Source of the DNA: Moniliella sp. 'wahieum'
Taxonomy: Eukaryota
NCBI GenBank assembly: GCA_003971905.1
Contig: RSEE01000123.1
Span: 124,001-179,630 of the forward strand
Direction of reading: 5' to 3'
Length of the DNA stretch: 55,630 nt
Shown: positions 6,024 to 55,630 of the stretch, in pieces
Numbering within the stretch: the stretch's first letter is position 1
How the letters are laid out: every line of letters begins with the position of its first letter
Notes under the pieces: model-generated
Told to the model about the DNA's origin: nothing
What the model saw: the letters and a program-made list of their open reading frames with translations, nothing else
Database searches by the model: none
Translations under genes and position numbers: made by a program

Positions 6024-8052
6024 TTAGGCAGCGTTGTTAGCGGCGGAGAGGGCGGCCTGGCGCTTGAGAGCCGGGGGCGAGTCGCCACGGGGAGGAAGAC
6101 CTCAACGACGTGGGCCTTGTCGGCCTTGTTGAACTCGGGGTCGGTCAAGAGCGCCTCGAGCTCGGCCTTGGTGTGGACAGCGTGGAACTGTGTCTTAGAT
6201 GGGACCGGGTCAGCCTCGTGCGAGGGCACGTTGGGCTTGGTCCAGGGGGTGGGGGCGTGAGGAAGTCAATCAGCTTCGAATGGTTCCAGATCGCAATGTC
6301 GTTGTAGAACTCGTCAGGGCCAAAGATCTGGCGCTCAATTTCGTATCCATCGTTGTTGAGGATAAAGATGAGAGGCGTCAAGCCGTGACGGAAGACAGTG
6401 CCGAGTTCCTGTGCGGTAAGCTGGAGGGAGCCGTCACCAATGAAGTGCACAACGCGGCCAGGGCGGTTAGGGTTGTGCTGTTGCAGCTGGCGCAGACCAA
6501 GCGCCGCACCCAAAACTGCACCGCCCGTAAAACCAATCGAGCCCCAGAGCATCTGCGCAATCAGCTTGGCGTTCTTGGGGAACGTCACGTCGATCAGGCC
6601 GAAGGACGAAGTACCCGTCTCGCCAAGAACAACGTCGCCCTCGCCGAAGAACTGACCCATGCGGGGCCAGAAGTAGCCCTGGGAAATGACGTCCTTGGAC
6701 TTGAAGCCCTCGGGACCACCAAGGCGCGTGAGGGTGAGCTCGTCGAGCTCAGCAATCTGCTCCTCGACCGAGGGGATCGCGTTGAGCGTAAGGGAACGAA
6801 CGGGAGCCAGGAGCGACTTGGTGACAGCGAGACGCTTCTCACCCTCACCCGAGAGAGCTTCCGTAAGCTTAGGCAGGAGCCACTTCATCTTGATGTCGTC
6901 AAACACAGCGTAGCCAATCTTGGTGTGGTCCGAGTGGAGCTCGATCGTGGCCGTGCGCTTAGTGCGGTAGGAGAAGGAGCCAGTGTTGTAGTCCGACAGG
7001 AGGGCACCGACCGACAGGATCAAGTCGGAGCTTTCCACAATCTCCTTGACCGCCGGCTTGCTCAGGCTACCGAGGTACACACCACCGAACTGGGCGTTGT
7101 TCAGTTCCGTGACGGTCGTCTTGCCCATGGGGGTGGAGAAGACGGGGAGGCCAGTGACCTCGGCAAACTTGCGCGTCTCAGCAACGACGTTGTGGCGGGA
7201 AGCGCAAGCGTCGACCAGGATGATGGGTTGCGTAGCCGCCTTGACACGCTTGACAATCTCGTCGAGCACGTTGCGCTCGATCTCCTCGTTGTTGGATGTG
7301 ACGGTGGTTTGCAGCTTGTAGTCCACCAGGCGCTTGGCAGCCGAGATAGGCAGGGGGAGGTCAACCAAGTTGGAAGGGTATCCAATGTACACGGGGAGAG
7401 AGCGGGAAACGCAGAACTCGAGGATCGAGTCAATGGCGCGGCAGGCGTCCAGGCCAGTGGTAATGTCCTCGGCCTGGGTGCCCTTGGGGATCAGGGGCAG
7501 ACGTCCCTCACGGTGCATCTGGTACAGGTCCAGCTGGGCGCCGGTGATCTGGCGGGCCATGTTGAGGAAGGCGTCGAACTTGTGGTCGCCTTGGTAGAGG
7601 GAGCAAAAAGTCAGATGCACGATCAACAACGTAATATAGTGGGGCAGACGGGCGGTGATGGGGAAGGTAAAACGTACCAAGAGTGTGGTGGAGCAGGAGA
7701 CCCTCGTCCTGGGCCTTGGTCGAGGGCGTACCGACAATGTGGATGACGGGAAGACGCTCGGCCATGCTGCCACCGAGGGCATTGCATGCGCTCAGCTCGC
7801 CGACACCAAAGGTGGTGGTGAGCACAGCGGGACGGGGGGGTGGCCCCGGACAGGACAGGGCCAGGCCCGGCCGGCCGAGTAGCCGGCGTTGAGTCGTTGG
7901 AGTTGCCGATCCAGCCCAGGCCACGCTCACGCCAGCGCGTGAGCATGGCCGGGTAAAGTCGCCAGGGAGGCCTGGACGAACTCAACCTCGAGCTGCTTCA
8001 AGCGCTCGCAGAGGTAGTCGGTGAGGGTGATGGTGCCTTCAACGGGAGCCAT
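6024..8052 (-). CDS. PDC1: Pyruvate decarboxylase / 2-oxo-acid decarboxylase, copy A; intron 7590-7677
   Basis: [59 protein letters not shown], and the ThDP-binding motif [11 protein letters not shown]...NNDGYEIER. Confidence 0.93.
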
Positions 8053-8447
8053 GGCGAATTGTGGGGGTGCTGTTGGGAACACGCGAGTGGTGCTGGAGTG
8101 GGGTGGGGATGGAGCGAACGGGGGACGAGGCAGATCAGTGGGTCTCTTATACGCGGACGGGTGGTAGATGCGATCGTCGCTGGTGAAGGCTGTTGATGCG
8201 TATATTGCTCCTGTTGGCCATGAGGCCTGAGCGCATGAGCCTGAGTGCCCGAGGTGGTGCTCAGAAGGCAGTTAAACCTTAACTGATGGGGTGGGTCGAC
8301 CTCCGCCGAGACTGGCGCCGTGCCCGGACCCAGGTGTAGTTTAATTGTTGATTTGAGAATTTGAGATGAGCAGCGCAGCACAGGGCAGTGTGAGCAAGCT
8401 GCTCACTGTCCAGCGCTGGCGCCGTGCGGACGCCAGTTGTGAGTGCA
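6478..8447 (-). repeat. Left arm of long inverted repeat (PDC copy A plus promoter); partner is 53688-55630
   Basis: The reverse complement of 53688-55630 aligns by eye to this interval: near-identical in the CDS, patchy in the promoter. The arm may extend further because the partner runs off the window. Confidence 0.95.
8144..8151 (-). promoter_or_regulatory. TATA box of PDC copy A
   Basis: TATAAGAG ~99 bp upstream of the ATG, conserved in copy B at 53970-53977. Confidence 0.65.
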
Positions 8448-52880: not shown

Positions 52881-53687
52881 CCAGCGCCATCGAAGCCATG
52901 GATAAGCTGGGCTCGGCCGACTCGCTGGTGCCCAGACACGCCTTCGAGACTGGGGTTTGCCGAGTTTGATTACTACATCATGCATCATGCATCATGCACC
53001 ACTAGATTGATCCCTGCGGCCAAGGCCTCTCAATTCGATCTGAGTACTCCCTCGTCACGCGTCACGCACTACTACATTCCAAGTTTGATTATTTTGATCT
53101 CCTTGGGACATGTGACGCGTGACGCGCCATCGATGATCCATATCATCAGCCCGCGTCAACAACGAGCACAGGGGATGTATTGAATATTGATGGCGTCAGG
53201 ACACCATCCTTGGTGACGAATCTCTGAGTCCCGAATGTTACAGCTTTAACGTTGAACTCAACGTTGAACTTGAACATTGCGACGTTGAGGCCGAGGACCA
53301 ATGCGCCAAGGCTAAGGGCCTAAGACCTAAGAACCTAAGAACTTGTGAGGCTAGGGGCTACTGGATTTGGATTGGCGTTTCGGACCTCCTGAATGACCGA
53401 GGATAGTGGCGCTGTTGAGGCCGTTGAGGACTGTGCTGGGACCCAAATATGCTCGCCGTGGTCCTCTCTTCAAGCTTCACCGTCCACATGATGTGGCAGG
53501 AGTGCCTGAGCGTCTAGGAGTGGCGCTGGACTGAGGCCCGAGGCTGAGCACCTGAACGTCACATCCTCAGCCCAGCTGGGCGTTTGCAACTGTCCAGCCC
53601 CTGCAGGCATTGGCCGCAAGAACAGCGGTGGAGGTCAGTTTGAGGGGGGACGGCGGCGAGTACATGAATTCGCAAGATCGATGCCGA

Positions 53688-55630
53688 TGCGCTCACAACT
53701 TGCGCCCGCATGGCGCCAGCGCTGGACAAGCCCTGCATGGCTACAACTGGCCCTGTGCTGCACCTCCCATCTCAAACCAATAATTAAACTACACCTCGGT
53801 GGGGCACGGCGCCAGTCTCAGTGCAGGTCGACCCACCCCATCAGTTACTTTTGGGCACCTCAGGGCCCTGTGGGCTTCATGGGCTTCATGGCCAGCAGGA
53901 GCAAGCAATACGCACTAAGCAGCCTTCACATCTACACCAGCGGCGATCGCATCCACTACGCTGTCCGCGTATAAGAGACCCACTGATCTGCCTCGTCCCC
54001 CGTTCCCTCCATCCCCCCCCACTCCAGCACCACTCGCGTGTCACCAACAGCACCCCCACAATTCGCCATGGCTCCCGTTGAAGGCACCATCACCCTCACT
54101 GACTACCTCTGCGAGCGCTTGAAGCAGCTCGAGGTTGAGTTCGTCCAGGGCCTCCCTGGCGACTTTACCCTGGCCATGCTCACGCGCTGGCGTGAGCGTG
54201 GCCTGGGCTGGATCGGCAACTCCAACGAGCTCAACGCCGGCTACTCGGCCGACGGCTTGGCCCGTGTCCTGTCCGAGGGCCACCCCCGTCCCGCTGTGCT
54301 CACCACACCTTTGGTGTCGGCGAGCTGAGCGCATGCAATGCCCTCGGTGGCAGTATGGCCGAGCGTCTTCCCGTCATCCACATTGTCGGCACGCCCTCGA
54401 CCAAGGCCCAGGACGGGTCTCTTGCTCCACCACTCTTGGTACGTTTTACCCTCCCGCATCACCTTCGTCTGCCCCCCCACTATATTATGTTTGTTGATCG
54501 TGCATCTGACCTTTTGCTCCCTCTACCAAGGTGACCACAAGTTCGACGCCTTCCTCACATGGCCCGCCAGATCACCGGCGCCCAGCTGGACCTCTACCAG
54601 ATGCACCGTGAGGGACGTCTGCCCTGATCCCCAAGGGCACCCGGCCGAGGACATTACCACTGGCCTGGACGCCTGCCGCGCCATTGACTCGATCCTCGAG
54701 TTCTGCGTTTCCCGCTCTCTCCCCCGTGTACATTGGATACCCTTCCAACTTGGTTGACCTCCCCCTGCCTATCTCGGCTGCCAAGCGCCTGGTGGACTAC
54801 AAGCTGCAAACGACCGTCACACTCCACAACGAGAGATCGAGCGCAACGTGCTCGACGAGATTGTCAAGCGTGTCAAGGCGGCTACGCAACCCATCATCCT
54901 GGTCGACGCTTGCGCTTCCCGCCACAACGTCGTTGCTGAGACGCGCAATTTGCCGAGGTCACTGGCCTCCCCGTTCTTCTCCACCCCCATGGGCAAGACG
55001 ACCGTCACGGAACTGAACAACGCCCAGTTCGGTGGTGTGTAACCTCGGTAGCCTGAGCAAGCCGGCGGTCAAGGAGATTGTGGAAAGCTCCGACTTGATC
55101 CTGTCCTCGGTGCCCTCCTGTCGGACTACAACACTGGCCTTCTCCTACCGCACTAAGCGCACGCCACGATCGAGCTCCACTCGGACCACACCAAGATTGG
55201 CTACGCTGTTTTGACGACATCAGATGAATGGCTCCTGCCTAAGCTTACGGAAGCTCTCTCGGGTGAGGGTGAGAAGCGTCTGGCTGTCACCAAGTCGCTC
55301 CTGGCTCCCGTTCGCTCCCTGACGCTCAACGCGATCCCCTCGGTCGATGAGCAGATTGCTGAGCTCGACGAGCTTACCCTCACGCGCCTTGGTGGCCCGA
55401 GGGTTTCAAGTCCAAGGACGTCATTTCTCAGGGCTACTTCTGGCCCCGCATGGGTCAGTTCTTCGGCGAGGGCGACGTTGTTCTTGGCGAGACGGGTACT
55501 TCGTCCTTCGGCCTGATCGACGTGACGTTCCCCAAACGCCAAGCTGATTGCGCAGCTGCTGGGGCTCGATTGGCTTCACGGGGTGCAGTTTTGGGTGCGG
55601 CGCTTGGTCTGCGCCAGCTGCAACAGCACA
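53688..55630 (+). repeat. Right arm of long inverted repeat (PDC copy B plus promoter); truncated by window end
   Basis: Reverse complement of ~6478-8447. Confidence 0.95.
54068..55630 (+). CDS. PDC1: Pyruvate decarboxylase / 2-oxo-acid decarboxylase, copy B (3' end outside window); intron 54439-54530
   Basis: [52 protein letters not shown] and GETGTSSFG. Near-identical to copy A with the same intron position. Confidence 0.9.

Follow-up and report, generated by a model that had tools for sequence, protein, structure and literature searches.

We report that a pair of inverted pyruvate decarboxylase (PDC) genes in Moniliella sp. 'wahieum' brackets a 45-kb block of ordinary genes and that, judged from the site patterns of two haplotypes, the arms of this inverted repeat exchange sequence in cis by gene conversion. 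The pair lies in a 55,630-nt stretch of DNA (hereafter the window) spanning positions 124,001 to 179,630 of contig RSEE01000123.1 (C123) of assembly GCA_003971905.1. We infer conversion between the arms because variable sites in the gene follow the haplotype while those in the promoter follow the chromosomal position, and exchange of this kind would mean that the block can in principle invert. Conversion between inverted duplicate arms, with rare inversion as a by-product, is in our judgement the best explanation of the locus (probability about 0.6). In its anatomy and homogenisation the locus resembles the flip/flop (FF) region of Saccharomyces; a single orientation was seen.

An inverted PDC pair on two haplotypes

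Comparison of the window with itself by BLASTN returned a sole long repeat, an inverted match of positions 6474-8447 with 55630-53688 (2002 columns, 92.1% identity, E reported as 0) in which 72 mismatches are accompanied by 87 gap characters, indels making up more than half of the differences. The match bears out the outward-facing pair of near-identical PDC genes proposed in a first-pass annotation made from the sequence alone. Copy A (minus strand, ATG at 8052 and stop at 6024, with an apparent intron near 7600-7670; Pfam TPP_enzyme_M and _C, PDC1 matches) is homogenised with copy B (54068-55630, plus strand), which is cut at the contig end. Three thiamine-diphosphate enzyme domains (TPP_enzyme N, M and C) and named relatives annotated as PDC1 or pyruvate decarboxylase identify the pair as predicted fungal PDC1-like pyruvate decarboxylases. 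The second exon is free of internal stops in all four PDC copies described below (indels being read as X), and its protein differs by 1-6 residues among copies and by three between the arms of each haplotype. The two closest matches to the protein are P0002 (88%) and P0003 (83%); the best named match is from Tilletiaria anomala (52%), followed by other Ustilaginomycotina, and judged by its PDC the host is a basidiomycete.

The assembly totals 69.5 Mb in 223 contigs, and many of its loci are present as contig pairs of 92-95% identity, which we read as two haplotypes, with older paralogues at 70-86%. Counts from the genome search for PDC contigs are lower bounds, and long DNA queries against the genome missed their own self match, so that they cannot prove the absence of a paralogue. 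Contig C123 terminates with the window, inside arm B, and the right arm, which the first-pass annotation left running off the end, is completed by contig C154. Since C154:110754-113038 overlaps the end of the window (55630-53355) at 97.6% identity and carries promoter B, we take C154 to continue the C123 haplotype; copy B runs on there into an OPT transporter gene and then into an 18-kb gene-poor, transposon-rich stretch. Contig C72 holds the entire block of the other haplotype in reverse complement. The arms of the C123/C154 haplotype are designated A1 and B1, and those of the C72 haplotype A2 and B2. Reading frames in the window are mostly broken by one-base indels that look like probable long-read errors: the same right arm on two contigs differs at 45 indel columns, whereas its 1666 gap-free columns hold no more than 13 substitutions, eight of them in one promoter cluster.

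Sequence exchange and probable gene conversion between the arms

Site patterns were counted across the four arms over the PDC gene (8052-6024, intron included), with columns within 3 of a gap excluded. Variants shared by A1 and A2 against B1 and B2, as expected of arms with separate histories, were scored as a position pattern, and variants shared by A1 and B1 against A2 and B2 as a haplotype pattern. Among 1872 gap-free columns of the gene 80 are variable, of which 14 show the haplotype pattern, 2 the position pattern, none the cross pattern, 63 are private to one arm and 1 is of another kind. The proximal promoter gives a different picture. Promoter A (8160-8447, minus strand), homologous to promoter B but not homogenised with it, has 47 variable sites in 181 columns, 31 of position and none of haplotype pattern, which corresponds to about 20% divergence between A and B in a segment part of which aligns poorly; promoter B (53688-53960, plus strand), at the inner edge of arm B, differs from its counterpart in the other haplotype at 1 of 181 columns. 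The contrast between gene and promoter is significant (Fisher p 3.5e-10), and the switch of pattern lies no more than about 25 nt upstream of a TATA-like box (8151-8144; a label read from the sequence). Together with the 5' leader (8053-8159, minus strand) this box forms the inner edge of the homogenised tract, where 92 columns contain no site of position pattern and a single one of haplotype pattern.

The haplotype-pattern sites are polymorphisms rather than read errors, given that 13 of the 14 are synonymous and 12 fall in third codon positions. Distances agree with the site counts: the PDC arms differ by 1.76% (A1-B1) and 1.87% (A2-B2) within haplotypes, or 33 and 35 differences in 1872 columns, part of which are sequence errors, against 2.67% (A1-A2) and 2.30% (B1-B2) between alleles. 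The background divergence of the haplotypes is 3.3% (1082 substitutions over the 32,987 columns free of gaps in the main alignment of the interior). Approximately unbiased (AU) tests reject the clades A1+A2 (p 0.0044) and B1+B2 (p 0.0032), and A2+B2 is supported at 94/99 in the larger of two trees. The private sites of B1 are confirmed on two contigs in 8 of 11 cases, with one contradicted and two at gaps. The arms are homogenised within the chromosome relative to the alleles, only in part, and the longest substitution-free tracts between arms of the same chromosome measure 219 and 243 nt.

The neighbouring OPT gene, present in three of the four arms, points in the same direction. Its copies are about equidistant (5.3, 5.9 and 5.3%), the same-position pair not being the closer one, and the 245 sites at which two copies agree against the third fall into 113 runs, compared with a mean of 163 after shuffling and with 0 of 5000 shuffles as low. 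The OPT copies form a mosaic of the kind that patchy conversion would give.

The PDC family of this genome comprises 10 loci (18 sequences in the tree), which besides the close sets are 14-43% diverged overall, the other paralogues standing 14-39% away from the A/B pair. A second outward-facing PDC pair, 123-133 kb apart (C56:111202-238369 and C59:60252-196953), serves as a control; it is 39% diverged and not homogenised. The PDC gene of C109 lies only 5.5% from that of C95/C97 over a similarity of 2.8-2.9 kb, and is perhaps a second converting, or a recent, PDC pair; the genome search found no allele for the PDC loci of C109 or C20. A metagenome scan for close PDC relatives gave 48 pattern matches, of which 0 were confirmed.

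Extent and history of the arms

The first-pass annotation described the arms by the PDC pair, over at least about 1.9 kb. The PDC arms are real, but the full arm is larger, the arms of C72 also holding the OPT gene. Arm B2 measures 6.8 kb and arm A2 8.0 kb, including a 1.1-kb A-specific spacer between PDC and OPT, and their OPT parts (104355-108430 and 165044-160873) are about 91% alike. Arm B1 carries OPT as well, and A1 is without it. Its comparison with C72 indicates that A1 lost OPT by deletion, because it keeps an apparent spacer start and the DNA beyond OPT: at the scar (5455-5750), positions 5455-5617 match C72:165207-165044, the spacer start resembles C72:159655-159720 in a by-eye comparison, and about 5.3 kb are present between these points in C72. 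What remains of arm A in the window is the 2.7-kb PDC block (5764-8447, minus strand); it aligns with C154:110040-112705 at 93.6% and with either arm of C72. The assembly runs unbroken through arm A of C123 and through the two C72 arms, and in both haplotypes arm A is flanked by an NAD-specific glutamate dehydrogenase (GDH) gene (1771-5301, plus strand; Pfam GDH_2nd and ELFV_dehydrog; ortholog C72:170554-176067).

The inverted duplication predates the split of the haplotypes. Because more OPT genes (74-76%) lie farther out on the B side, the sequences suggest that B may be the older site of the duplication. These additional OPT genes, at least three, are clustered beyond the B flank at C72:68639-86500 and C154:62052-79500.

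Orientation of the block

In two of two haplotypes, and at all four assembled junctions, promoter A is joined to the GDH flank and promoter B, together with SLA2, to the flank with OPT and GH128. The two chromosomal isomers envisaged in the first-pass annotation were not seen in this material. Its further proposal that a crossover in PDC could invert the block holds as far as the precondition goes, the arms bearing a conversion signature of recombination, and no flip was seen.

A rough rate model built on shared and private sites assumes tracts of 0.3-2 kb and the yeast figure of about 4% of conversions ending as crossovers (PMC9731477). It gives about one conversion per site since the haplotype split; for each lineage it yields 1.6-7.7 events and, in the PDC block, 0.06-0.31 crossovers over the same time. 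Since the modelled flips are rare, one orientation in two haplotypes is expected whether or not the block inverts. The old paralogous regions on C51, C141, C95 and C109 were tried as a means of dating inversions and set aside, having too few genes in common.

Interior genes, SLA2 and mating-type families

The proposed interior of about 45 kb and 20 genes was borne out: the block (8448-53687) measures 45,240 nt, is collinear with C72:156329-111114, and holds 17 Pfam-named protein genes and two Rfam transfer RNA (tRNA) genes. The genes are a makorin-type RING protein, a PDK/BCKD kinase, proline dehydrogenase, a CLC channel, a DUF155 protein, a tRNA, a septin, HRD1, aminolevulinate (ALA) dehydratase, dynamitin, PCC1, RRF, DPM2, a NIF phosphatase, NAF1/GAR1, an HMG-box protein, an M24 aminopeptidase, SLA2 and a tRNA. 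To call them single-copy, as had been done, was too strong, given that other contigs carry older paralogues of SLA2, the septin, the kinase and the makorin gene. Two further regions (11160-11640 and 31400-34500) are probable genes without a Pfam family, the first with a C51/C131 paralogue beside a makorin paralogue, and a 15-nt coding tandem repeat (29963-30146) lies at the end of the dynamitin gene.

SLA2 (48104-51467, plus strand, end approximate; Pfam ANTH and I/LWEQ) lies inside the block and outside the repeat, its end standing about 2.2 kb inward of the right arm, as first noted. A 1-kb direct duplicate of its 5' part, about 92% alike, stands just upstream of it on C72 (117771-118814, matching window 48094-49143) and is not in the window. 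C141/C100 carry an SLA2 paralogue (76-77%), whose neighbours on C141 are MRS2, LETM1 and a racemase-like gene; no mating-type match came from the 78 of 102 listed frames that were scanned there. Between SLA2 and arm B lie a tRNA gene (51953-52034, minus strand; Rfam RF00005, 38 bits; multicopy in the genome), a long CT-rich microsatellite (52050-52245) and a 7-nt tandem repeat (52830-52880) upstream of promoter B. Both tRNA genes of the window (22838-22943 and 51953-52034) have an extra insert in the anticodon arm, apparently an intron, and were found by Rfam (2) and not by ARAGORN (0).

The first-pass annotation recognised no mating-type gene inside the block, and Pfam scans and searches for STE3 and homeobox genes recovered none there either. 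No mating-type family was matched in 94 + 128 window frames (one of the 128 from outside the window) or in 129 flank frames, from which very diverged or frameshifted genes could escape. The genome search found STE3 matches on C104 and C111 and homeobox matches on C10, C11, C28, C29, C82 and C105, and none on C123, C72 or C154. A 36-residue frame ending in a CAAX-like motif, on the minus strand 32 kb left of arm A, was rejected as a pheromone candidate, having no Pfam match and being single copy. The region of this frame is 95% alike in the other haplotype, two such frames in about 235 kb could arise by chance, and the frame is probably such a chance occurrence. The link between SLA2 and mating type invoked in the first-pass annotation is one of ascomycete yeasts; a literature search for it in Ustilaginomycotina gave no relevant paper, and the position of SLA2 here is taken as coincidence.

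Transposons and the stretch outside arm B

Positions 5453-5457 of the window (alignment break at 5455) are the empty site of a 5.4-kb DNA transposon inserted only in C72 (165208-170548). Its junctions show terminal inverted repeats of about 22 nt and an apparent TA duplication, and its longer frames have no Pfam match. A copy at 92.5% on C131 has a PDC paralogue on one side and a duplicated PDC 3' fragment on the other, and relics occur outside arm B; from this copy and these relics it follows that the family recurs beside PDC 3' ends. Matches of 66-76% beyond the OPT arms had been considered as older extensions of the arms and proved to be relics of this dispersed transposon family, to which the C131 copy belongs.

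Outside arm B both haplotypes have a gene-poor, transposon-rich stretch (C154:87800-105700, 18 kb; C72:92800-104300, 11.5 kb) that aligns poorly between them. Of 125 frames scanned there, five match Pfam, all with retrotransposon domains; 14 more frames gave no match. GC content drops there as low as 46-48%; elsewhere the means are 58-61%, and 6 of 258 2-kb bins lie below 52%. By its composition the stretch could be heterochromatin or a regional centromere. It includes a 6.9-kb long terminal repeat (LTR) retrotransposon (C154:97876-104734) with gag, protease, reverse transcriptase, RNase H and integrase domains, which is a recent insertion since its 825-nt repeats are 99.5% alike. In the window, a 260-nt dispersed repeat (46891-47151) occurs at 91-93% in more than 35 places of the genome (39 of 1186 candidates scored), one copy lying within the A-specific spacer of C72.

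Discussion

The explanation that we favour begins with an old inverted segmental duplication that placed PDC and the neighbouring OPT gene on both sides of the 45-kb block. Since the haplotype split the PDC copies of each chromosome have copied each other from the TATA region through the coding sequence, the upstream promoters remaining separate, presumably by non-allelic gene conversion during the repair of breaks. Such conversion may have been tolerated or favoured, both copies encoding the same abundant enzyme. A small share of events may, by established recombination mechanics, end as crossovers that invert the interior; a flip would place promoter A beside the B flank and promoter B beside the A flank, and leave the protein almost unaltered. 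Change of orientation would then be rare, on an evolutionary timescale, and a by-product rather than a switch.

Several observations weigh against this reading. No inverted isomer is found among the four assembled junctions of two haplotypes, which come from one strain, and the genome search returned no further contig with an A/B-type PDC. The share of crossovers is borrowed from yeast (PMC9731477). In one haplotype the left OPT gene is missing, and the arm that is shared measures only 2.7 kb as a result. On C51 the gene order of an old paralogous region, compared over four blocks, requires three reversals to reach the present order and four to reach the flipped one. The groups A1+B1 (58/40) and A2+B2 (77/73) are weakly supported in a nine-row tree, and cross-pattern sites number 0 in the coding region and two in the 3' region, at 5878 and 5780, A2 being unaligned at the latter.

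Much of this evidence would also suit arms that are homogenised around a block that never inverts in surviving lineages, either for want of crossovers or because the flipped form is selected against. The shared orientation of haplotypes 3.3% apart, the missing cross pattern in the coding region, the slight preference of gene-order parsimony for the present order (3 against 4 reversals) and substitution-free tracts no longer than 219 and 243 nt all fit it. Two chromosomes have low power, however, with a modelled chance of about 1/10 to 1/3 of showing opposite orientations, and a similarly homogenised 4.2-kb repeat in Saccharomyces has flipped repeatedly and yet stayed stable through some 53,800 mitoses and 950 meioses (PMC9731477). 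On balance we think a block that never inverts unlikely, while granting it real weight.

The programmed, reversible FF switch of Ogataea and Komagataella, serving mating type or moving a PDC promoter beside a silent region, has the dimensions of the locus on its side: arms of 2.7-8 kb and an interior of 45 kb lie within the yeast FF1 range (49 kb in Cyberlindnera; PMC6692504), the promoters are about 20% different, C123 terminates within arm B, and arm B alone is bordered on its outer side by 11.5-18 kb of DNA that is poor in genes, rich in transposons and in part low in GC. But pheromone receptor and homeobox matches are absent from C123, C72 and C154, no mating-type family appears in the scanned frames, and no convincing CAAX peptide lies within the block. 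The Ogataea repeats are 2049 bp long and identical (PMC4238957), while the arms here are 1.8% apart; frequent exchange would erase the private sites, 8 of 11 of which are confirmed on two contigs. The assembly has no break in arm A of C123 or in either C72 arm, and low GC is not unique to the stretch, six of 258 other 2-kb bins falling below 52%. With a basidiomycete host, no mating-type (MAT) genes among the scanned frames, SLA2 outside the repeat and diverged arms, the mating-type analogy drawn in the first-pass annotation fails, and we regard a programmed switch as very unlikely.

Two simpler accounts fare no better. If one arm were a misplaced allele, or if polishing had made the arms of a haplotype alike, the indel-rich sequence (two contigs that cover one arm disagree at 45 indel columns) and the contig break inside arm B would be natural. 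Yet each haplotype has both arms with their own promoters and flanks, which rules out the misassembled allele that had been raised as a possible undoing of the pair; private substitutions survive (8 of 11 confirmed twice), haplotype-pattern sites are synonymous in 13 of 14 cases, and misplaced reads would follow true similarity and could not turn a positional truth into a haplotype pattern. An assembly artefact is for these reasons quite improbable. A static pair of paralogues, kept alike by purifying selection and codon bias or duplicated very recently, with no exchange, could appeal to the conservation of the enzyme, whose second exon differs by only 1-6 residues. Selection, however, predicts the position pattern, and the gene shows 14 haplotype against 2 position sites; the cross pattern, a measure of chance parallel change, stands at 0; the 20% promoter divergence common to both haplotypes excludes a recent duplication; and the other PDC paralogues of the genome are 14-39% away. 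We find such a pair scarcely credible.

Conversion between the inverted arms, with inversion as its rare by-product, is thus the reading we retain, and the recombining repeat is real and better supported than the first-pass annotation could know. A neutral polymorphism of orientation among strains is a tentative extension, to which we would give rather less than an even chance. That the block flips within the species as a heritable, reversible position-effect switch on fermentation, acting through swapped PDC promoters, seems to us highly doubtful. Were it so, a crossover would exchange the two PDC promoters, and the SLA2 and makorin ends, between a flank dense in genes and one that borders a stretch rich in transposons and perhaps silent or centromeric, and the locus would be the first basidiomycete nuclear FF system within the literature searched.

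Independently of flips, the locus offers a clean case of arm-to-arm conversion, brought out by comparing the two haplotypes of a single assembly and sharply bounded at the TATA region, coding sequence being shared and promoters not. Inverted forms in other strains would make it the counterpart, in a basidiomycete, of the Saccharomyces FF polymorphism, with a 45-kb non-recombining block in orientation heterozygotes, and the homogenising pressure would have an obvious candidate in the dosage of a fermentation enzyme, a point that the Saccharomyces account leaves open (PMC9731477). Should every strain share the present orientation, the locus is a converted pair of paralogues of the ordinary sort.

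Comparison with known systems

Our literature search, in whose coverage subscription journals are mostly missing, found no paper on this locus, on concerted evolution of PDC or on such a system. Mating-type switching systems (FF1/FF2) of Ogataea polymorpha, Komagataella phaffii and Cyberlindnera saturnus share with the locus a kb-scale inverted repeat around a multi-gene block (PMC4238957, PMC6692504), and in C. saturnus SLA2 also lies near one end, inside the block (PMC6692504). They differ in phylum and in the identity or near-identity of their arms, whereas the present arms differ at 33 and 35 of 1872 columns. Neither the scanned frames nor the STE3 and homeobox searches returned opposite mating-type genes for the two ends of the block here, SLA2 lies outside the repeat, and the assembly holds a single isomer with no sign of induction.

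Concerted evolution of yeast histone and ribosomal-protein genes likewise combines homogenised coding sequence with diverged upstream promoters and yields near-identical protein from two loci (PMC9731477). Unlike those duplicates, the copies here are inverted on one chromosome, so that a crossover gives an inversion, and their high expression is assumed from the role of the enzyme. For the mammalian X chromosome, conversion between inverted arms with an occasional crossover has also been proposed (Caceres et al., as cited in PMC9731477); recurrent inversion is shown across species there, whereas one orientation is seen here.

The closest analogue is the unregulated FF region of Saccharomyces chromosome XIV, where the 4.2-kb inverted repeats of YNL018C/YNL034W surround 24 kb (Salzberg et al. 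2022, PMC9731477). Those repeats are homogenised within strains, both orientations occur in nature, no change was observed in about 53,800 mitoses and 950 meioses, and the Discussion of that paper proposes inversion as a rare by-product of conversion. Both loci have kb-scale, gene-containing inverted repeats (4.2 kb flanking 24 kb in Saccharomyces, 2.7-8 kb flanking 45 kb at the present locus) with ordinary genes inside and no mating-type genes. In both, the arms of one chromosome resemble each other more closely than alleles do, and some alleles have an insertion or mobile element that interrupts one arm. They are unlike in that both orientations are known from many strains there and one orientation from two haplotypes here, and in that the arm genes are sporulation genes there and PDC and OPT in a basidiomycete here. 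Promoters escape homogenisation at the present locus, where it is partial (1.8% in PDC, 5-6% in OPT) and where one haplotype has lost most of one arm.

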